A DNA stretch of 64,000 nt from a virus (taxonomy: Duplodnaviria; Caudoviricetes), in IMG/VR virus record IMGVR_UViG_3300021255_000140, positions 39,513-103,512 of that record; one strand, 5' to 3'. Positions 5,327-41,855 of the stretch are shown here, piece after piece. The translations under genes and the position numbers were made by a program. Position 1 is the first letter of the stretch; each line of letters begins with the position of its first letter. The notes beneath the pieces were generated by a model that saw only the letters and a list, made by a program, of their open reading frames with translations, was not told the DNA's origin and did no database searches.

Positions 5327-5417
5327 TAGGAAGTGGAGGATTCGGACCTCTCCTTTGCTTGTAATTGATATTCATCTCTTACATTAGCATTGTGCTACCC
5401 ATTACACCGCATTTCCC
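5327..5417 (-). ncRNA. tRNA-like element with an extended hairpin in place of the anticodon arm
   Basis: Minus strand: GGGAAAT acceptor pairing imperfectly with ACTTCCT; D-arm GTG-TAATGGGTAG-CAC; T-arm GAGG-TCCGAAT-CCTC; long TGCT..TGTAA...TTACA.AGCA stem in the anticodon position. Confidence 0.45.
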
Positions 5418-5483
5418 TTTTAGAAAGTGGCACAAATATATAGGCAAAAGTTTCCAAAGTTTCAAAGTTCCTGACCAAAAAGT

Positions 5484-5543
5484 TGGCGGTACTTGCAGGT
5501 GTCGAACCTACTCCATTGCCTACTATACCATGCCACTTATACC
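5484..5543 (-). ncRNA. truncated tRNA-like element ending in CCA
   Basis: T-arm GTAGG-TTCGACA-CCTGC followed by AAGTACCG-CCA; 5' GGTAT pairs with GTACC. Confidence 0.35.
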
Positions 5544-6211
5544 TTTCTACCTCTGAAGGAACGTGTTTCAAAGACAATCTTTGTCATCATTTCATTAAAT
5601 CTGTCTGCAATACGGTCTTTGTATTTTTCACGGATCTCCTGCGGACGGAGATTGGTTGATACTATTGTTAATAGTTGTTCGTCATACCTATACGATAGTA
5701 ATTCAATTACAGGGTTAATAACATTGCCATAACTCAATACCTCCATAGGCTCAACTCCCAAATCGTCTATAGCAAGCATCGGCTTGGTCATATAGTTCTT
5801 AAACGTTTCGTATTTTTCTTTGCTTAGCCTTGCCAGCTCTCTTGCGTTAAGCAATGAAATGCCGCAAATACGACCATAATCATCCTTGATGTTTAGAGAG
5901 TTTATCAAGGTTTGAATAGCTTTGACAAGTGTAGTCTTCCCATTCCCAGGCATACCGCATAAAATAAGTCCAGGCGTTTTAGGCGAATGTAACCACTTTG
6001 ATGCAATGTCTATATATTTTACGGTCCCGTCGTCATTGATATAAGTAAGGTGTCTATAAGCGACTTCGGCCATGTATGAAGCCGTAAGCAAGTCTCTCAC
6101 TTGCTCTTCCGTATAAGGGATCTTAAAAAACTCCTTCGTAGTCCTCTGATGTAGTAGCCGTGACATCAGTTCCTCTACGTTTATCTTTTTGTCTTTGTCT
6201 ATCTGTAACAT
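5537..6211 (-). CDS. DnaC/IstB-like ATPase (helicase loader)
   Basis: Walker A GMPGNGKTT, Walker B LAIDDLG, IVSTNL, DRIADRFNEM; follows the initiator gene. Confidence 0.85.
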   Translation of the reverse strand: MLQIDKDKKINVEELMSRLLHQRTTKEFFKIPYTEEQVRDLLTASYMAEVAYRHLTYINDDGTVKYIDIASKWLHSPKTPGLILCGMPGNGKTTLVKAIQTLINSLNIKDDYGRICGISLLNARELARLSKEKYETFKNYMTKPMLAIDDLGVEPMEVLSYGNVINPVIELLSYRYDEQLLTIVSTNLRPQEIREKYKDRIADRFNEMMTKIVFETRSFRGRKV

Positions 6212-6848
6212 CTTTTTCTATGTTTAGTTGTATTCTCAGCCAATTGCAGAAATGTCTCTTTATCTCTCTTAAATACTTATGTTCTGTACCCTCGCAATCA
6301 AGGTCAAGTGCGAATGCATCGATTTTTTTGATGATATATTCAGATGATACTGAAAATTTCATTGCCATCTGTTCAATCCATATTTGCGAATGTTTCATTT
6401 CGTCAATAAAATCTATATCGTCAGGCTCATCCATGATAGGTCTCGCTAATGTAACTTTTTCCCCGCGAATTAAATCCGCACTCGTATTGTCGTTATATGC
6501 TGGTTTGGCTACATTGTTTTCAACATTGTCATCGCAGACATATTTCCCGTAATTGCAAATAGTCAGGATAGAACTATGCCTGTATACAACATGTCTTGTA
6601 ATCATGCCTTCGCTTTCAAGCCATTTCAGGAATTTTATTGTGGTTGGACGGCTTATTTTCCATCTTGCAGATAAGAAGGAAGCTGATGCAATCATCTGCC
6701 CACGTCGCACTGCTATCAGATGCGTGTCTTGTATAACATGCTTATATTCGGTGGCTGCAAGAAACAGCAAGTCGGACCATCGTTTAAGATACTCCGGATT
6801 ACTCCATATTAGACCTCCTGCGATTTCATCACTAAGTTTAATAAACAT
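6123..6848 (-). CDS. phage replication initiator protein
   Basis: N-terminal wHTH signature (WSNPEYLKRWSDLL, VRRGQMIAS, LSARW, ILTICNYGKY); C-terminal KRHFCNWL; adjacent to the DnaC-like gene. Confidence 0.75.
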   Translation of the reverse strand: MFIKLSDEIAGGLIWSNPEYLKRWSDLLFLAATEYKHVIQDTHLIAVRRGQMIASASFLSARWKISRPTTIKFLKWLESEGMITRHVVYRHSSILTICNYGKYVCDDNVENNVAKPAYNDNTSADLIRGEKVTLARPIMDEPDDIDFIDEMKHSQIWIEQMAMKFSVSSEYIIKKIDAFALDLDCEGTEHKYLREIKRHFCNWLRIQLNIEKDVTDRQRQKDKRRGTDVTATTSEDYEGVF

Positions 6849-11127: not shown

Positions 11128-11685
11128 TTAGAATAAATTAAGTTGTTCAGGTTTTCGCTGTTTGTTTCCAGCGTTGAGTGTTTGTTCAATAAACAGATTC
11201 TTGAAAATATGGAACATGCAACTGACTACAATCGAGTTGCCCGCAAGTTTATAACAACTGCTGTTTGATACACCACTGTTCATAATCTTGTCGATGTCTT
11301 TGTCCTCCACATCCATCAGGCGAAATGCCTCGCGTGGTGTAAGTTTACGTATTCGCATCACAACAGGAAGTATGTCTTCACATAGCTGTATAGCCTCATT
11401 TCTCTCCAAAAACTGATAATTGCATATTTTGTAAATGGAGTAGTCGACTATTTCTTTAAGATAGTCAGTATGGCACCATTCGGCAGCTAAAATTTTCAGT
11501 CTTCTCTTTGTTTCATCCGTAAATGATACCGCTTTTTCTTCGCTGTGCTTAAATGCGTAAAGTTCCGGGAAAATTACCTTAAATACTTTTAGGCATTCAT
11601 CTTGTGTATTCTCTATCCCGTACAACCTGCGGCAAGCACGATATACGATTCTTACTAACCTGTGAAAATTCTTATTTTGTTTCAT
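11128..11685 (-). CDS. C5-cytosine methyltransferase, C-terminal half (motifs IX-X) with an unknown N-terminal helical domain
   Basis: RIRKLTPREAFRLM (motif IX), YKLAGNSIVV (motif X). Confidence 0.85.
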   Translation of the reverse strand: MKQNKNFHRLVRIVYRACRRLYGIENTQDECLKVFKVIFPELYAFKHSEEKAVSFTDETKRRLKILAAEWCHTDYLKEIVDYSIYKICNYQFLERNEAIQLCEDILPVVMRIRKLTPREAFRLMDVEDKDIDKIMNSGVSNSSCYKLAGNSIVVSCMFHIFKNLFIEQTLNAGNKQRKPEQLNLF

Positions 11686-11863
11686 ATATAATTGATGTTA
11701 CGTTAAAGTTTGTTAGTGTTCGCAATGTCGGAAAGACATCGTTGGAAAATGGTTCCATTGCCATTATCTCACCAAAGCCTTGACTTCCGCCCCGTATACT
11801 TGCACTGAATACCTGATTCAGATTTACCTCTGGGTTACTTCTCCTAAGTTCAATCTGTTTCAT
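11672..11863 (-). CDS. TRD-like micro-cassette 16
   Basis: MKQIE...DVFPTLRT...SIIYETK*. Confidence 0.7.
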   Translation of the reverse strand: MKQIELRRSNPEVNLNQVFSASIRGGSQGFGEIMAMEPFSNDVFPTLRTLTNFNVTSIIYETK

Positions 11864-12128
11864 TTGCTATAATCAAAAAGAAATTATGTTGCCAACTTGA
11901 TGTGGTCACTGCAGGACTTATGCCCTTTCGGTATTCAAATCCGTAGTTGAACCCTCTTGGATAAGCCTTGATGTAGATTAAGTCTCGGCTATTACCATAA
12001 CTCCCATTTCGCGAAAGCCCTGCCTTGGTGCGATGATGTTGCCCGCATAGTGGTGGGCGGTTGTTAGTGTCACTGCACACCCGTCGACATCGGTGTTTAT
12101 AAAGACAAACTGTTTCGTTCCTATCCAT
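11850..12128 (-). CDS. TRD-like micro-cassette 15 (TRD-like part about 11850-11990; no local start codon)
   Basis: YIKAYPRGFNYG...GISPAVTTSSWQHNFFLIIANETD*; the N-terminal part overlaps cassette 14 in another frame. Confidence 0.55.
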   Translation of the reverse strand: MDRNETVCLYKHRCRRVCSDTNNRPPLCGQHHRTKAGLSRNGSYGNSRDLIYIKAYPRGFNYGFEYRKGISPAVTTSSWQHNFFLIIANETD

Positions 12129-12148
12129 TTTTTCGTACTATTTTTCAT
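11978..12148 (-). CDS. TRD-like micro-cassette 14
   Basis: Hand translation: MKNSTKKWIGTKQFVFINTDVDGCAVTLTTAHHYAGNIIAPRQGFREMGVMVIAET*. Confidence 0.7.
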   Translation of the reverse strand: MKNSTKKWIGTKQFVFINTDVDGCAVTLTTAHHYAGNIIAPRQGFREMGVMVIAET

Positions 12149-12326
12149 ATATTTCCGCGACCAAATTATCCTTATTTGTGAATGTCGTTATCGTTCCCAT
12201 TATACGATCCCCAACTGTCATATATCTGCCTTGAAATGTTGCACCATCATCACCGTAAAGATGGCGGCGCAACCGCTCTTCGGAAGTCCTTATCCTGATT
12301 ATACTTTTAGCATCAGTACACTTCAT
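12138..12326 (-). CDS. TRD-like micro-cassette 13
   Basis: MKCTDAK...RIMGTITTFTNKDNLVAEIYEK*. Confidence 0.7.
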   Translation of the reverse strand: MKCTDAKSIIRIRTSEERLRRHLYGDDGATFQGRYMTVGDRIMGTITTFTNKDNLVAEIYEK

Positions 12327-12471
12327 ATAATAAAGCAACTAAATAGTCCTTTTGTACGCTTGATATGGCATTACTGAATCTGTCTGAGTTCATTTCAAGC
12401 ATCTGCCGATGCTCGGAGGTATACCATTCCCCCTTGCTTCTGCCTCGTGACGCACAACTAATCGCTCTCAT
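12313..12471 (-). CDS. TRD-like micro-cassette 12
   Basis: Hand translation: MRAISCASRGRSKGEWYTSEHRQMLEMNSDRFSNAISSVQKDYLVALLYEVY*. Confidence 0.7.
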   Translation of the reverse strand: MRAISCASRGRSKGEWYTSEHRQMLEMNSDRFSNAISSVQKDYLVALLYEVY

Positions 12472-12682
12472 CCGCATACACTATCCAGTATCTTCCCAAC
12501 GTTTCACTTGCAGACAGTGTCGGTTGTACTCCCATAGCAGAATATATCCTATTCGGCTGGCTATGTGTTCTGCTGAGAAATAAACTGCAATTATCAAATC
12601 TCAGTTTACCATCAAAATAACCGACAAAGACCTCTCTCTCTGATCGCGTCAGAAAATCACCGAATATACTAATCGCTTTCAT
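12458..12682 (-). CDS. TRD-like micro-cassette 11
   Basis: ...SQPNRIYSAMGVQPTLSASETLGRYWIVYADESD*. Confidence 0.7.
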   Translation of the reverse strand: MKAISIFGDFLTRSEREVFVGYFDGKLRFDNCSLFLSRTHSQPNRIYSAMGVQPTLSASETLGRYWIVYADESD

Positions 12683-12830
12683 ACACCATCAAAATTTTCG
12701 TTTCAACACCGCTATGACAGCCAACGCACAAACATGGAGATATGCCTTTTTTATCATACACCAATCCATTCTGTTGGGAGTTATACACAAAGCCCGCAAC
12801 TATTGGGTGGATAGCATCAAACCGTTTCAT
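12669..12830 (-). CDS. TRD-like micro-cassette 10
   Basis: Hand translation: MKRFDAIHPIVAGFVYNSQQNGLVYDKKGISPCLCVGCHSGVETKILMVYESD*. Confidence 0.7.
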   Translation of the reverse strand: MKRFDAIHPIVAGFVYNSQQNGLVYDKKGISPCLCVGCHSGVETKILMVYESD

Positions 12831-12984
12831 AAGCTACTGTTATTTTGGGCTGCCTATGACCGCCGCCGCTACTACAGTCAAGGGTAGGAGAGATACCGTA
12901 TTTATCGTATACCCTTCCAGCTTGTGAATTGCTCGGGCTGAAGTACAGATAACCTATCTGCCGAACTCTATCAAAACGTTTCAT
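12817..12984 (-). CDS. TRD-like micro-cassette 9
   Basis: Hand translation: MKRFDRVRQIGYLYFSPSNSQAGRVYDKYGISPTLDCSSGGGHRQPKITVAYETV*. Confidence 0.75.
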   Translation of the reverse strand: MKRFDRVRQIGYLYFSPSNSQAGRVYDKYGISPTLDCSSGGGHRQPKITVAYETV

Positions 12985-13138
12985 ATATCACGGCTATTTT
13001 GGGAGATGTATTCCATCCTCCGCCACTGAACGTAGTGATTGTATTTGAAATAGTTTTTTTGTGCCAGTTGTCAATCTCACCTTCGGCATTTCTCGACCAC
13101 CCGTAGTAATCTATTTTGCACAGTTTAATTCGTTTCAT
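12971..13138 (-). CDS. TRD-like micro-cassette 8
   Basis: Hand translation: MKRIKLCKIDYYGWSRNAEGEIDNWHKKTISNTITTFSGGGWNTSPKIAVIYETF*. Confidence 0.7.
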   Translation of the reverse strand: MKRIKLCKIDYYGWSRNAEGEIDNWHKKTISNTITTFSGGGWNTSPKIAVIYETF

Positions 13139-13295
13139 GACAGCACGGAATTATAGGTTGAAGATTGCCACCTGCACTATAGTCTTTAATAGTAGGGGCT
13201 ATGCCACTGGTGTCATAAACTCTCCTTCTATTCGGATTAATTCTTTTTGCAGAGTCAGTAAGATTGCAGATTTGCTTGATGTTACTCTGTTTCAT
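13125..13295 (-). CDS. TRD-like micro-cassette 7
   Basis: Hand translation: MKQSNIKQICNLTDSAKRINPNRRRVYDTSGIAPTIKDYSAGGNLQPIIPCCHETN*. Confidence 0.75.
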   Translation of the reverse strand: MKQSNIKQICNLTDSAKRINPNRRRVYDTSGIAPTIKDYSAGGNLQPIIPCCHETN

Positions 13296-13439
13296 ATACT
13301 ACAATCACACCAGTTGCTCCAAAACCATTTTTTTCTGGAAATTAATACGCCCCGTCTTGAAATAACTTGCCTTCAAAGTCCTGCATATACCATCAGACGC
13401 ATCATTCAATGGTACAATACGTACTCTACTTAGTTTCAA
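13282..13439 (-). pseudogene. TRD-like micro-cassette 6, frameshifted at an A7 run
   Basis: TTG start, LKLSRVRIVPLNDASDGICRTLKASYFKTGRINFQKK; one more A gives NGFGATGVIVVYETE*. Confidence 0.6.
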
Positions 13440-13597
13440 CTGCTTGCGTAATGAGTTTATTCCCATCATCGTATCTTGCTGTAATAGTTATATGAATACC
13501 TATATGGTATGCTTGGTTGTAACTATCCAGACATACCCCCACCCATAAATGGAACATTGCCGCTCTCAATAAGTCTTAATGCTCTTTCGCTTTTCAT
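13426..13597 (-). pseudogene. TRD-like micro-cassette 5, frameshifted at a G5 run
   Basis: MKSERALRLIESGNVPFMGG; one fewer G gives VCLDSYNQAYHIGIHITITARYDDGNKLITQAVETK*, matching cassette 4. Confidence 0.65.
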
Positions 13598-13601
13598 CTT
13601 A

Positions 13602-13787
13602 TTAAGTCTCGATAACTTGCGTTACGTAATAATGGTTATAATGGTCAATTCTCGTCGTTACTGTAACGAACACATCATCGCGAACTTGTTGATTATATAA
13701 GTCAATGCATTGTCCCCCATGTAGCGCAATCTTGCCACTTTCAATCAGTTGCGACATTCTTATTCCGCCACTCTTACCTTTTTTCAT
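13602..13787 (-). CDS. TRD-like micro-cassette 4
   Basis: MKKGKSGG...LIESGKIALHGGQCIDLYNQQVRDDVFVTVTTRIDHYNHYYVTQVIET*. Confidence 0.7.
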   Translation of the reverse strand: MKKGKSGGIRMSQLIESGKIALHGGQCIDLYNQQVRDDVFVTVTTRIDHYNHYYVTQVIET

Positions 13788-13914
13788 AGATTTCAATCAC
13801 TTTCTGCACTCTATCAGACATGGGGTTAGAAGGAATGGTAAACGCAACGTCCTTAATGCTGATGGAAGGTTTGTTTCTGTCGCCAACCAGTTCAAAAATC
13901 TTAAAACGTTTCAT
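13774..13914 (-). CDS. TRD-like micro-cassette 3
   Basis: Hand translation: MKRFKIFELVGDRNKPSISIKDVAFTIPSNPMSDRVQKVIEIYEKR*. Confidence 0.7.
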   Translation of the reverse strand: MKRFKIFELVGDRNKPSISIKDVAFTIPSNPMSDRVQKVIEIYEKR

Positions 13915-14069
13915 ATACTACTCCAATAGACATTTTAGGGAAATGTGCGGTGCTTATCCAGTTCGCCGGCCATTGTGTTTCATACACTGCCGTAATCGTC
14001 GGAGATAAACCATCTGAGGTCGTCGGTAGTCCGATACGTCGGATGGGGGGTAAATCTATTCTGCCTCAT
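13901..14069 (-). pseudogene. TRD-like micro-cassette 2, frameshifted at a C6 run
   Basis: MRQNRFTP; one fewer C gives IRRIGLPTTSDGLSPTITAVYETQWPANWISTAHFPKMSIGVVYETF*. Confidence 0.6.
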
Positions 14070-14220
14070 ATATATACATCCAACAGCCTTTCGGATAGTG
14101 CTTAAGAGTTATATAATCCTTTATTGCTGCGAACTCATACCTTGTATTCAATGTTGGAAAAACAGTGTCCTTGCAGACATTCTGAGGCTTAATTCTACTG
14201 AGCAATAAAGAAGTTTTCAA
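14056..14220 (-). CDS. TRD-like micro-cassette 1
   Basis: TTG start overlapping the MTase-N stop; ...KDTVFPTLNTRYEFAAIKDYITLKHYPKGCWMYIYEAE*. Confidence 0.65.
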   Translation of the reverse strand: MKTSLLLSRIKPQNVCKDTVFPTLNTRYEFAAIKDYITLKHYPKGCWMYIYEAE

Positions 14221-14986
14221 AATCCTCGTTTTTTTCTTCCGGAAGTTTATTCTTTTTGTCATCCTCTTCGAGACTTTTCCTGCAAAATCTTGCAAGCATT
14301 TCGTCAGAAAGAAAATACCTCTCGTCAACGTCTTCTTCTAAACAATCGGCAAGGCAAAGTTCAAGTGGAAAAGGCTTTGGAAAATCATAAGATGGATCTG
14401 GTTCGTCCAGTGTCCTCAATACAGACACGCAAAATACTCTTTCTCTGTTTTGCGGAACACCATAGTGTTTTGCATTGAGTATCTGCCAGAAATTTGCATA
14501 TCCATACTTTTCAAGCAATTTCAGCCACTCGTTGAAATACGGCATGAATTTCTTTTGTGTCAGAGCCTTTACATTCTCCATGAGCAGATATTTCGGGCGC
14601 TTGATGTCGATGGCTTTTTCACACTCCCAGAGTAGGCTCGACCTTGTCCCGCTACCTTTTGCCAGTCCTGCCTGACGTCCAGCATTGGAAACGCTTTGGC
14701 AGGGGAAAGAAAAAGTAAACAAATCGAAATCAGGCACATCCTGCCACATTATCTTAGTAATGTCTCCGTAATTCTTACTCCCGTCAGGGAACAATGCTCT
14801 ATTTGCGATGACGGCAGGCTGATTGTCTATCTGCTGTTTGCTTTCAGGGTCAAATTCAGCCCATCCTACTCTCACAAAGTCAAAATTGGGATATGTTTCT
14901 TTGAGCCTTTTTAACGCTAATGCCTGGCTTGAATAGCCCGCAAAAGCTTCAAATACCCGTAATGGGTTCTTTTTATTGTATACCAT
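14195..14986 (-). CDS. C5-cytosine methyltransferase, N-terminal catalytic half (motifs I-VIII)
   Basis: FEAFAGYSS (I), GDITKI, FSFPCQ (IV, catalytic PC), MENV (VI), QNRERVF (VIII); stops where the TRD region begins; start taken at MVYNKK. Confidence 0.9.
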   Translation of the reverse strand: MVYNKKNPLRVFEAFAGYSSQALALKRLKETYPNFDFVRVGWAEFDPESKQQIDNQPAVIANRALFPDGSKNYGDITKIMWQDVPDFDLFTFSFPCQSVSNAGRQAGLAKGSGTRSSLLWECEKAIDIKRPKYLLMENVKALTQKKFMPYFNEWLKLLEKYGYANFWQILNAKHYGVPQNRERVFCVSVLRTLDEPDPSYDFPKPFPLELCLADCLEEDVDERYFLSDEMLARFCRKSLEEDDKKNKLPEEKNEDFENFFIAQ

Positions 14987-15027
14987 TGTTTTATGTGTTA
15001 CATTACTAAGATAATGATTCATTCTTG

Positions 15028-15196
15028 TGGTCCGGGGAAGCATCGAACTTCCCAATACCCTTTGACGGCGTAATCTTAAAGCTTGGATGTGAGGGTACTA
15101 TTTACGGGAGTCGAACCTAACGACCTCACTTGCTACCGAGACTATATCCGCACTTCAAGTTAATAGTACGATGCGCAATCCGTCCGTTTCGGACCA
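15028..15196 (-). ncRNA. tRNA-like structured RNA with a nested 75-nt insert
   Basis: Terminal TGGTCCG/CGGACCA stem with T-arm GGAAG-TTCGATG-CTTCC; inner GTACTATT/AATAGTAC stem (15095-15169) encloses a second GGTTCGACTCC. Confidence 0.4.
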
Positions 15197-15338
15197 TAAG
15201 AGCCGCACGCTGACTATGTCCTGCTTTCACTCCTCCCGTACATCAATTCCGGGACTTGGCTATGCGGCTCTCGCCGTCTTTCCGGCTGTCATGTTATGAT
15301 GATAGAAAAAACGAAGGTTTTTTGCGATGTGCAAAGTG

Positions 15339-38605: not shown

Positions 38606-40030
38606 TTATACAAAACTTACTATCTCCTTGGTGTCCTCGAAGACGACGTTGCCGTTCTCCTCGATCACCTTGCGCCCGTCGATTTCGAGAATGTCCGTCT
38701 GCTCCTCGTCAATGCCGTAGCGCATAGAGCCGCGGTCTATGAACACGGTCTTGAACCGAGTGACCTTGTTCCTGGTCATGTCTGCCAAGAACGTCTTTAT
38801 CTCCACAGCGTTCACTATGAGTTTATATGTGTCGCCCATGAAGCGCACACGCAAAGCGTACCTGCCCTCACCCTGCGAGGTCTTGATGTTGGCTATCCAC
38901 TTTTCAACCTCCACGGGCTTGGTAAGCAACATCTGCATGCCAATCTTCGGAGCATCGATGAATGGAGTGCCGTTGGCATCCACACGTTCCGTCCGCTTGA
39001 TGCCGCAGTTAGCAATCTTTACCATGTCTTTCTTCTTGATAGTACGTCCGGTCTTCTTGGTCCACAGGCGCTTGCAATGGGAGTTGCCCCATTTCAGCAT
39101 TCCCCACGCTGCATCGTCCAGCTCTCTCAGACGCTTTGGGTTGCTGACATCGGCACGATGCTTCAGCCAACTAACCTTGTCCGACTTCCTCCACCACATA
39201 TCCTTCCTGTTGCCGTAGAAGACGAAACCCATCATGTCTATGCCTTCATAGACTCTGTGTATCTTCGGCTCATGCAGCTGAAAGCCTTTGTCTGCAAGGA
39301 ACTTCCTGGCTCTCTTCATTTTCCATTTCACCTCGCCCTTGGTGGCTCCAGTGAACATGAAATCGTCAAGATAGCGGACGTAGCCCGCTGCATGCACATC
39401 CTCTAACATGAAATGGTCGAAAGGACACAATACGAGGTTGCCTGTAATCTGACTCGGACGGATGCCGAGGGGTATGCCTATGCCGTCGGGCGAGAAACGC
39501 TCGAACGGCTCCATGAATGCCTCGATGAACTTCTTGTCTTTGAACAGGTGGACGAGGGCCGAATGTATCTGCCCGTGGTCGATGCTGTCATAGTACTTGC
39601 GAATATCGCCCTGCGCATACCATCGTTCCTGCCCTCTGTACTTTCTGAGGTTCTTCTTGATGGATAGTGCACAGGCAATCTGCCCGTACCCTTTACGGCT
39701 TGCGTATGTATGTCGTATCAGCGACCTGTCAACTCTCCTGTCGGCTGCCATCGTCAGCAGCTGGTGCTCGATGTGGGATGGGTGGAAATAGACCTTCGAT
39801 ATGTCACGGAGCTTGTTCTGACCGCTGATCCTCTGTTCGTGCATGTACTCATCGGTACGCATCCTGCCCTCCAAGACCATCTGCTGTATCTCGCACAGAT
39901 TCTTGAAGCGGCTCTTGATGTGTCGCTGCACTCCAGGGTTGCGGTTCTTCCGCTTCGTGGCGACATTCTCAGCCTCCACGATGTTCTCCCACTGAGCCAT
40001 CTGCTCATATATGTAACCGGCTCTCTTCAT
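38606..40030 (-). CDS. DGR reverse transcriptase with a C-terminal extension of about 140 aa
   Basis: QGDIRKYYDSI, GIPLGIRPSQ (DGR SQ signature), YVRYLDDF, GIDMMGF; adjacent TR/VR pair. Confidence 0.95.
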   Translation of the reverse strand: MKRAGYIYEQMAQWENIVEAENVATKRKNRNPGVQRHIKSRFKNLCEIQQMVLEGRMRTDEYMHEQRISGQNKLRDISKVYFHPSHIEHQLLTMAADRRVDRSLIRHTYASRKGYGQIACALSIKKNLRKYRGQERWYAQGDIRKYYDSIDHGQIHSALVHLFKDKKFIEAFMEPFERFSPDGIGIPLGIRPSQITGNLVLCPFDHFMLEDVHAAGYVRYLDDFMFTGATKGEVKWKMKRARKFLADKGFQLHEPKIHRVYEGIDMMGFVFYGNRKDMWWRKSDKVSWLKHRADVSNPKRLRELDDAAWGMLKWGNSHCKRLWTKKTGRTIKKKDMVKIANCGIKRTERVDANGTPFIDAPKIGMQMLLTKPVEVEKWIANIKTSQGEGRYALRVRFMGDTYKLIVNAVEIKTFLADMTRNKVTRFKTVFIDRGSMRYGIDEEQTDILEIDGRKVIEENGNVVFEDTKEIVSFV

Positions 40031-40517: not shown

Positions 40518-41855
40518 CTACGCTGCCAATGCTTTGAACTGGGTTGCACTTACCTTGTTAAGGCTACCATAGTAAGCAAGGCGAGCCGAGCAGTTCGCGT
40601 ACGAGGACGTCCAAGCGCTGTTCGAGTGCGCAGACGCGAGGCCGCAATTCGACCCGGCGTACGAGTCACCGCCAAACAGCCACAGCTGTCCTGATGCTGA
40701 ATACCAGAAGTTATCGCCATAGCTTACACCCGAAAGGGATTGCTTAGGTATCATATAGACACCCTGTCCCTGCTGGCTCTCGATGATATTCATGCCTGTG
40801 ACGGCACTTGTGGCACGTGTCAGCTTGACATGCTCCACATTGGCAAACGACTCAGCCGTAGGAGTGTCAGTAGGTAGCCAGTTGTGCCTCCAGCAATAGA
40901 CATCGGTGCCTACAGAGCAGAGACCCTGTACCATTTCCCACTTCTGACCCCAAGGGTTCTCGAAGCCTGCCACGTTGACACAATGGCAAGTGTTGCTGTT
41001 GGCATCCGTGGTGGCCACGTTTCCGTCATAGTCACCTAAACTGAGGACGATACCTGTCTTGATGTTCTTCTGACCGTCGAAGCCACCGCTGTTCTCCGTT
41101 CCGTCGAGGCCAACACCCCAAATTAGAGTATTGTCAGAGCCTTTGCAGTTCTGAGAGTCACGATAGGCATACTTCGCCATCATGTGGAACAGCAGGTGGT
41201 TACGGAAGTCGAGGTTCGCCAAGCCGTGGTTCTTGCTCCTTGCCTGTGCCTTCGTCCAGAACTCATTGATGGTGTAGCTATCAGCAGTCACCAGTCCGGG
41301 GAGGCTTCGCAGGGCGCTCGACACGACGCTTGCCTTGAACTTGCCGACAACCATCTGAGGGATGATGTAACCGCCGGGCAACGGAACGAGAGAAAGCCAA
41401 AGACGCGGAAATGTAGTATCTCCAGCAGTGATAGTCTGCACACGTCCGTAAGTAACGGGGATGATTTTCATAAAGTCGCCATGTGCAAACTCCGAGACTA
41501 TCGTGCCGTCTGCGTTAAGCAGGTAGTCGCCTTCCGCTGTGTAGCGGTTGTCGTTCCTGTTCAGCTCGCAGTAGTTGCCGTGCTCGTCCATCAGCACAGA
41601 TATGGCGGCATTCTCCCATAACTGACGCATATTCATGTTCCCTCCGACATCTACTCTCGTTGAGCCTAAACTTGATGCTTTGTTTACATCAATGTAGAAA
41701 GCGAGAGAGTTCAGTGCGAGTTCATCATCATTGTTAAGGGCGTTGCGTAAATTCTTTAGCGTGATTTGTCCTACTTTTCCTCCGAAATTTCCGAAGATGC
41801 TATTGCCGTCGCTCATAGAAGCGACATAGTCTTTTTCTGTAAGTGATTTTGACAT
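40518..41855 (-). CDS. DGR target protein, C-type-lectin-fold tail receptor-binding protein
   Basis: GFENPWGQKWEMVQG, LFGG.S..GS.CG...SARL; VR at the C-terminus. Confidence 0.9.
   Translation of the reverse strand: MSKSLTEKDYVASMSDGNSIFGNFGGKVGQITLKNLRNALNNDDELALNSLAFYIDVNKASSLGSTRVDVGGNMNMRQLWENAAISVLMDEHGNYCELNRNDNRYTAEGDYLLNADGTIVSEFAHGDFMKIIPVTYGRVQTITAGDTTFPRLWLSLVPLPGGYIIPQMVVGKFKASVVSSALRSLPGLVTADSYTINEFWTKAQARSKNHGLANLDFRNHLLFHMMAKYAYRDSQNCKGSDNTLIWGVGLDGTENSGGFDGQKNIKTGIVLSLGDYDGNVATTDANSNTCHCVNVAGFENPWGQKWEMVQGLCSVGTDVYCWRHNWLPTDTPTAESFANVEHVKLTRATSAVTGMNIIESQQGQGVYMIPKQSLSGVSYGDNFWYSASGQLWLFGGDSYAGSNCGLASAHSNSAWTSSYANCSARLAYYGSLNKVSATQFKALAA
40579..40687 (-). repeat. DGR variable repeat (VR)
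   Basis: 3' end of the target gene; adenine-specific divergence from TR. Confidence 0.95.

Follow-up and report, generated by a model that had tools for sequence, protein, structure and literature searches.

A Phage Cytosine-5 Methyltransferase Locus With a Two-Piece Catalytic Core and an Array of 16 Small Target Recognition Cassettes

Introduction

How can a DNA methyltransferase work when its catalytic core is encoded by two separate genes and the region that should determine its specificity is broken into 16 small pieces? This question is raised by a locus at positions 11128 to 14986 of a 64,000-nt stretch of DNA from a tailed phage of the animal gut (Duplodnaviria, Caudoviricetes), which is called "the window" in the following. 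The window represents positions 39,513 to 103,512 of the IMG/VR record IMGVR_UViG_3300021255_000140, a complete virus record of 103,512 bp with direct terminal repeats. A first-pass annotation, made from the letters alone, had described the locus as a split cytosine-5 methyltransferase (C5-MTase) with an array of 16 micro-genes resembling target recognition domains (TRDs), which either supply exchangeable micro-subunits or are stitched together by recoding. Here it is reported that the locus is a variant of the multispecific phage C5-MTases with an unprecedented gene architecture and, judged across the family, the character of a contingency locus. In our judgment it is probable that the gene of a multispecific C5-MTase has been divided up into some 18 cistrons of one operon, i.e., an N-terminal half (N-half), up to 16 TRD mini-genes, and a C-terminal half (C-half), the products of which act as separate subunits. 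The split layout probably lets the phage vary the DNA motifs that it methylates and thereby escape host restriction. The literature searched, in which subscription journals were only sparsely covered, yielded no account of such an architecture.

Anatomy of the Locus

All features of the locus are encoded on the minus strand, and the two halves flank the 16 cassettes, making 18 pieces in total (Table 1). The split itself, as proposed by the first-pass annotation, is borne out by the PF00145 matches of both halves and by their intact motifs, namely IV (FPCQ), VI (ENV), and VIII (QNRER) in the N-half and IX (RKLTPRE) and X (GNSIVV) in the C-half. Motif I has the variant sequence FAGYSSQ, which is common to nine of 25 relatives. 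The open reading frame (ORF) of the N-half remains open further upstream, to a TTG at 15055; the start predicted by the gene caller is at 14986. The variable region of PF00145 (positions 225–269) is absent from both halves alike, and the 2.5 kb between them is tiled end to end by the cassettes. All 16 cassettes that had been listed are indeed present, but just 12 of them are intact, free-standing ORFs, each beginning with an ATG. The frame of c2, c5, and c6 is shifted at a short homopolymer, and c15 lacks a start codon.

The locus has features of two known kinds of enzymes. The core is cut into a part with motifs I–VIII and a part with motifs IX–X, with the break in the variable region, as in M.AquI, and several TRDs (16 cassettes) form a tandem series from motif VIII to motif IX. 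The locus is divided into 18 ORFs by stop codons and changes of frame; neither the single polypeptide of core and TRD that is typical of PF00145 enzymes nor the covalent linkage of TRDs in one chain that is typical of the SPR and phi3T enzymes is found here. Pfam gave no matches for single cassettes. A profile of the cassettes matches the variable region of PF00145 enzymes, between motifs VIII and IX, up to eight times per protein, with E-values down to 1e-38, which establishes the proposed homology of the cassettes to TRDs. Gene callers, as had been anticipated, and also Pfam overlook nearly all of them, so that such loci are at present annotated as truncated methylases.

Table 1. Features of the methyltransferase locus (positions in the window).
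Feature	Position	Strand	Length	Remarks
N-half, C5-MTase motifs I–VIII	14195..14986	-	263 aa	from ATG at 14986; PF00145 2–225, E 3.6e-45
c1 (FPTLNT)	14056..14265	-	69 aa	ATG; 71-nt overlap with the N-half tail, +1 frame
c2 (SPTITA)	13901..14069	-		junction ATG 14069–14067, C6 tract 14050–14045, TRD body in another frame; OFF as assembled
c3 (AFTIPS)	13774..13914	-	46 aa	ATG
c4 (FVTVTT)	13602..13787	-		ATG at 13787; homologs in six continuous multi-TRD enzymes
c5 (HITITA)	13426..13597	-		ATG at 13597; extra G in run 13540–13536 (G5) breaks the frame
c6 (CRTLKA)	13282..13439	-		TTG-AAA start at 13439; broken at A7 run 13334–13328; intact in loci L005 and L006
c7 (APTIKD)	13125..13295	-	56 aa
c8 (SNTITT)	12971..13138	-	55 aa
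c9 (SPTLDC)	12817..12984	-	55 aa
c10 (SPCLCV)	12669..12830	-	53 aa	chosen for complex prediction; A6 run 12752–12747
c11 (QPTLSA)	12458..12682	-	74 aa
c12 (SNAISS)	12313..12477	-	54 aa
c13 (MGTITT)	12138..12326	-	62 aa	from ATG at 12326
c14 (AVTLTT)	11978..12148	-	56 aa
c15 (SPAVTT)	11850..11977	-		degraded junction: no start codon, offset -1
c16 (FPTLRT)	11672..11863	-	63 aa
C-half	11128..11685	-	185 aa	five-helix bundle of about 110 aa, then motifs IX–X; PF00145 269–322, E 2e-6

The 71 nt from 14195 to 14265 code in two frames, on the one hand for the acidic tail of the N-half (ending DFENFFIAQ-stop) and on the other hand for the basic start of c1 (MTKRINFRKKKTRILKTSLLLSRIK), and both are conserved in relatives.

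Conservation of the Split Layout

The locus is spanned completely by a 10.8-kb contig that stems from a different study and differs by 81 substitutions and three one-base gaps, all of which are in homopolymer runs. The phage was detected in gut metagenomes of at least 13 studies, many of them bovine; no RNA dataset is listed among the sequencing runs that contain it, and one dataset that is labeled metatranscriptomic (X19) is probably DNA. The layout is conserved far beyond this phage. The best 120 clusters of N-half relatives (54–100% identity) all have lengths of 232–301 aa and therefore represent N-halves only, and most of the 1548 relatives of the C-half have lengths near 181 aa. A scan of IMG/VR revealed 513 related places, 80 of which were examined. 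Among these 80, the closer loci are all split, with gaps of 0.4–2.7 kb between the halves, and about 35 loci have the order N-half, cassettes, C-half. In four contexts from public assemblies, small ORFs likewise fill 1.3–1.6 kb between an N-half and a C-half; they belong to the cassette families found here and share the junction. The relatives were located on phage contigs and in prophages of Bacteroidales (Prevotella, Muribaculaceae, and Bacteroides among them). The first-pass annotation had recommended looking for split C5-MTases in Bacteroidales phages, and the split layout was indeed observed family-wide; members of the family are frequent in Bacteroidales phages and prophages from the guts of animals and humans. 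In a DNA search of the GenBank phages, the sole match was an 81-nt motif.

Orthologous cassettes have ratios of non-synonymous to synonymous substitution rates (dN/dS) of 0.05–0.33, with saturated synonymous sites. Even the c2 type, which most assemblies have out of frame, falls within this range. The cassettes are protein-coding sequences under purifying selection. It had been conceded from the start that the breaks might be assembly errors or the result of random decay. Both are contradicted by the recurrence of the layout in independent assemblies and by the purifying selection on the cassettes, and, together with the family-wide conservation, these observations exclude assembly error as the main explanation.

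Continuous Relatives and the Parent Enzyme

More distant relatives consist of one continuous ORF of 382–731 aa with up to eight TRDs in tandem, and sister clades have 2–8 TRDs within one ORF. Each TRD of these continuous relatives ends with a hydrophobic strand followed by Glu. The first-pass annotation had mentioned neither the continuous multi-TRD ORFs of related clades nor the richness of the split arrays in homopolymer tracts. The cassette profile found 3007 representative proteins. The best of the long matches are PF00145 enzymes, which are matched 5–8 times between their N-terminal and C-terminal motifs. Further matches are TRDs fused to motifs IX–X, proteins that consist of TRDs only (279 aa with five TRDs and no Pfam match), and single-TRD proteins of 51–75 aa. 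Searched against the PDB sequences, the profile gave only a weak match (E 0.32), which is located in the TRD of M.MpeI. The part of the C-half with motifs IX–X is 54% identical to the multispecific MTase of the Bacillus phage SPR. This likeness and the presence of continuous multi-TRD enzymes in sister clades lead to the conclusion that the parent kind is a multispecific phage C5-MTase. Across the relatives, a series from one ORF to two to many is observed.

Examples from Bacteroidales genomes include the two-piece form of the cultured Muribaculaceae isolate Lepagella muris NM04_E33 (locus L095, 4737–6207), in which the stop codon of the N-half is followed 11 nt on by a C8 run and a 490-aa ORF comprises TRDs and motifs IX–X. 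Continuous forms are present in Prevotella sp. MGM2 and Duncaniella muris DSM 103720.

Junctions Between the Cassettes

The shared ending "YE-x-x-stop" of the cassettes, which had been noted in the first reading, does exist, but it is the same DNA word, TATGAAAC, as the shared beginning "MK..", read in two frames. In one frame it specifies the end Y-E-T-x-stop of the upstream cassette, and in the other the start M-K of the downstream cassette. The ATG of the downstream cassette precedes the stop of the upstream one by 11 nt, and therefore most neighbors in the window are offset by +1. The word occurs six times in the 2.4-kb array and ten times in the whole 64-kb window, compared to 3.35 occurrences expected by chance.

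A homology-guided parser, which misses cassettes without relatives and counts some mis-paired neighbors, yielded 171 neighboring cassette pairs. An offset of +1 was found for 99 pairs, with the ATG 11 nt before the stop in 41 cases, at -8 in 16, at -5 in seven, and at -14 in four. Another 43 pairs have an offset of -1, mostly with an ATGA overlap, and the remaining 29 have an in-frame stop (offset 0) and a variable start position. What the junctions have in common is thus the start codon near the stop, whereas the shift differs. The codon usage of the terminal Tyr-Glu is in agreement with this: Tyr is encoded by TAT in 55 cases and by TAC in one case, compared to 305 TAT and 220 TAC (58% TAT) for Tyr-Glu in long ORFs of the same loci. 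Because TAT together with the following G creates the overlapping ATG, it can be concluded that the third base of TAT is selected.

ARAGORN detected no tRNA, either in the window or elsewhere in the 103.5-kb genome. The kept start codons, the TAT bias, and the tRNA-free genome favor the coupled translation of separate peptides over serial frameshifting. Of the two readings offered at the outset, the exchangeable micro-subunits are therefore favored and the stitching by recoding is disfavored. The micro-subunits gain further support from the position of the simple-sequence tracts, from the TRD-only proteins, and from the predicted three-chain complex (see below). Special forms of decoding were also considered. 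An alternative genetic code was rejected because TAA, TAG, and TGA all occur as junction stops and the frames differ, and quadruplet or suppressor decoding was rejected on the basis of the ARAGORN result.

Simple-Sequence Tracts and Strain Variation

Simple-sequence tracts follow the start codon of the junction and precede the body of the TRD. Runs of 7–12 G or C were found 45 times in 36.7 kb of split arrays and only six times in 265 kb of flanking phage DNA, which represents an about 54-fold enrichment, and the 7.3 kb of TRD regions of the continuous relatives do not contain any G/C run of at least 7 nt. The same tract pattern is present in genomes and metagenome-assembled genomes of Bacteroidales, with up to ten tracts in one array. 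Of the 45 tracts, 14 leave the downstream sequence in frame, 16 need a shift of +1, and 15 need a shift of +2. Such an even spread is expected of free-running length variation and not of one programmed slip. The c2-type cassettes are a good example: the order is always junction start codon, tract, and TRD body, the tract varies from C6 to C10 or is (CT)14 in one locus, and the body is in frame in just one of nine loci. The tracts in the window are short (5–7 nt), compared to the G/C runs of 7–12 nt in the arrays of the family elsewhere.

Tract-length variation that alters the reading frame was observed between strains. The A7 run of c6 is A8 in three other strains (X4, X7, and X19), and the G5 run of c5 is G4 in two of them (X4 and X7); the frame is restored in both cases. 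In contrast, the A6 run of c10 is shortened to A5 in X7, which breaks the frame. The C6 run of c2 also differs in length and is C9 in X4. In addition to single bases, whole cassettes differ between strains. One strain has lost exactly the six cassettes c3–c8 by recombination, with 930 nt deleted between two junctions that are identical over 15 nt, and in the same strain (X6) a 240-nt in-frame deletion removes the dead cassette c15. The strain differences indicate that single cassettes can be dispensed with or switched, and that their gain and loss take place at the junctions.

Predicted Assembly of the Pieces

A complex of the N-half, the C-half, and c10 was predicted from a separate alignment for each chain, in three runs and alongside three controls. 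The complex score ipSAE was 0.87 in each of the three runs, while the best of the three controls reached 0.25; the mark applied to this score was calibrated and is reached by 58 of 80 solved complexes and two of 110 mismatched pairs. The predicted local distance difference test (pLDDT) values of the partners were 71–74, and the runs shared at least 85% of the contacts. The three-chain complex that the first-pass annotation had suggested for modeling thus passes the controls.

In the model, the cassette occupies the place of a TRD, with motif VIII on one side and motif IX on the other. The last strand of c10 (45–48) pairs with residues 111–113 of the C-half (motif IX), and residues 27–33, around the S-P-C-L core, rest on residues 178–182 of the N-half (motif VIII). 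The modeled pairing with motif IX would give a reason for the conserved strand-Tyr-Glu ending. The modeled cassette also contacts the helical domain of the C-half. Residues 1–110 of the C-half (11356–11685) are predicted to form a five-helix bundle, with block-mean pLDDT values of mostly 83–92. The bundle was seen only in the fully split clade; it is kept in the closest relatives of the C-half and absent from the continuous and the two-piece relatives. A Foldseek search of the C-half model against the PDB returned nothing below E 0.16, and no cultured phage record that spans the helical domain was found in the GenBank phages. On the basis of the model, the bundle may be a docking platform for the TRD peptides. 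The prediction supports a putative binding of the cassette to the halves. There is precedent for an assembly from parts: natural two-piece C5-MTases, as well as complementation by fragments cut in the proximal variable region, are documented (PMC3404938).

Discussion

The results suggest the following mechanism. Each mini-gene would be translated alone from an ATG that overlaps the previous stop codon, i.e., by translational coupling. The two halves would re-form the catalytic core, as in M.AquI, and one TRD peptide of 45–75 aa would dock between them, with its last hydrophobic strand on the motif IX strand of the C-half and the region of its T-L loop on motif VIII. The resulting pool of complexes could methylate many motifs and thus shield the phage DNA from host restriction. 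With each TRD as a cistron of its own, single specificities could be changed while the enzyme is spared. They would be switched by insertions and deletions in homopolymer or other simple-sequence tracts, and they would be lost, gained, and shuffled by recombination between the conserved junctions. The split would be useful because a frameshift in a TRD of a continuous enzyme destroys motifs IX–X, whereas in an array of cistrons it would silence only one specificity. An extended version of this mechanism is proposed more tentatively. It envisages a three-component C5-MTase in which free, interchangeable TRD subunits of about 50 aa work on a two-piece core, and a tract-switched contingency array that is shuffled at the 15-nt junction. 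Each lineage would then have a heritable and reversible methylation pattern, which would hedge between Type II restriction and methylation-dependent (Type IV) restriction.

Several observations do not fit easily with separately translated, trans-acting subunits. Four of the 16 cassettes in the window cannot be made from a start codon of their own as assembled, and 16 of the 99 junctions with a +1 offset, as well as several junctions with an in-frame stop, have no start codon nearby. In one clade (L064–L087, around position 5741), the N-half ends with NTENC-stop and the first TRD (ADGCSPTITSSFGAGI) runs on in the +1 frame with no start near, which is unexplained by coupled cistrons. One N-half and one C-half that had to serve at least 12 competing TRD peptides would represent an unfavorable stoichiometry. 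The assembly in trans rests on structure prediction, and the high docking score may partly reflect memory, as intact C5-MTases are among the solved structures. Lastly, the differences in tract length were seen between strains, i.e., between assembled contigs.

Some of these observations would be accounted for if the pieces were joined during translation, by programmed frameshifts, readthrough, or hopping, to yield one giant multispecific enzyme. The sister clades have continuous multi-TRD ORFs of up to 731 aa, most junctions need the same +1 shift, a few have T-rich codons before the stop (TTT TGA, TTT TAA, GTT TGA), and the c2 type, c15, and the clade L064–L087 have no usable start codon. However, the junctions would require three different kinds of events (+1 in 99, -1 in 43, and 0 in 29 cases) and have no slippery site in common. 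What is conserved is the start codon (TAT 55 versus TAC 1), the genome has no tRNA or suppressor gene, and the tract phases are spread evenly over the three frames. Simple arithmetic adds that 17 serial events with an efficiency of 50% each would result in fewer than one full-length chain in 100,000. Joining in translation is thus highly improbable.

A multispecific methyltransferase gene that has lost its function and is in decay is also a very unlikely explanation of the locus. Four cassettes in the window are broken or without a start codon, frameshifts in homopolymers are the commonest inactivating mutations, and strains differ by deletions, all of which would speak for decay. Yet the cassettes, including the out-of-frame c2 type, are under strong purifying selection, the catalytic motifs are intact, the start codons are under selection, and the split layout is present in more than 120 protein clusters and in dozens of loci at 50–80% identity. 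Furthermore, the about 54-fold enrichment of G/C tracts is not a product of decay. A further alternative would be a mainly silent archive of cassettes, in which a TRD works only once it has been fused in cis to the N-half or the C-half by a tract change or by recombination. Fusions of TRDs to the C-half are indeed found in many relatives, where a G/C tract marks the exact point at which the ORFs break, and recombination from junction to junction does occur. But such recombination re-creates a junction and not a fusion, each cassette keeps its own ATG and stop codon, TRD-only proteins exist, and in the fully split clade the five-helix bundle stands between the last cassette and motif IX. Therefore, we regard an archive as unlikely, and separate micro-subunits remain our preferred explanation.

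Among the known systems, the multispecific enzymes of Bacillus phages (M.SPRI, M.phi3TI, M.rho11sI, and M.H2I) are close counterparts. They too are phage-borne orphan C5-MTases with TRDs of about 40–60 aa in tandem between motifs VIII and IX. They have roughly 3–5 TRDs, compared to the 16 cassettes described here. In contrast to these enzymes, every TRD of the present locus is a cistron of its own with start and stop, an extra helical domain precedes motif IX, and the arrays carry hypermutable tracts. M.AquI (alpha/beta) and M.EcoHK31I share the division of the catalytic core into two polypeptides with a break in or beside the variable region (PMC3404938). However, they consist of two subunits and have one specificity, with the TRD on a core subunit, whereas the TRD of the present locus would form an exchangeable third subunit, with 16 versions to draw on.

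The tracts are reminiscent of phasevarions (Type III mod and Type I hsd genes), in which homopolymer or dinucleotide tracts in the coding sequence also set the downstream frame. The known phasevarions belong to bacteria, act on N6 of adenine, and have one tract that switches the enzyme as a whole. The present locus, in contrast, encodes a phage C5-MTase with tracts in single TRD cistrons, so that the core would remain active while specificities are switched one by one. Type I HsdS subunits and hsdS shufflons likewise combine a separate specificity subunit with a constant catalytic subunit and vary by recombination among modules. There is no homology, however, and HsdS has about 400 aa and two TRDs and is shuffled by an invertase, whereas the cassettes encode peptides of about 50 aa in direct tandem. 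No recombinase gene was identified beside the array, where the neighboring ORFs were not screened against family libraries.

If the proposed mechanism holds, the recognition module of a C5-MTase would work as a detached peptide of about 50 residues, which would represent a natural plug-in for programmable cytosine methylation. It could also address how multispecific enzymes present one TRD at a time, a question that dates back to the work on the Bacillus phages. For the phage, a switchable methylome of many motifs would be a new counter-defense strategy.

Additional Observations

The expression signals and RNA elements of the window were also inspected. No minus-strand terminator was found inside the array, and a sigma-70 scan gave sites that were not above those of shuffled sequence, a promoter type that is ill-suited to Bacteroidota. 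Two candidate tRNA-like elements, at 15028–15195 and 5327–5543, were rejected, as ARAGORN found none and Rfam had no match there at E-values up to 1. The fold of 15020–15200 is unremarkable (z -1.4), and two T-arm-like hairpins are visible. The sole Rfam row for the window at E-values up to 1 is SNORD81 at 41665–41739, which has 27 bits compared to a gathering score of 50 and is taken as a chance match.

Two relatives carry additional elements within the locus. In L001 (4666–6696, identical in L002), motif IV of the MTase is interrupted, between FSFPC and Q, by an insert of about 350 aa that resembles an intein, and at this site Pfam matches to Hint, intein, and LAGLIDADG families are present in two relatives from the databases (P0262 and P0269). 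L001 also has C9 and C11 runs at TRD boundaries. In L014, an ORF of about 170 aa lies within the cassette array (6106–6630); it resembles, by eye, a homing endonuclease of the HNH/NUMOD type.

The locus is positioned in the replication and recombination module of the phage. A large ORF that adjoins it resembles, by eye, an SNF2-type helicase. The loci of the relatives adjoin genes for DnaB, RecT, and an N6/N4 MTase.

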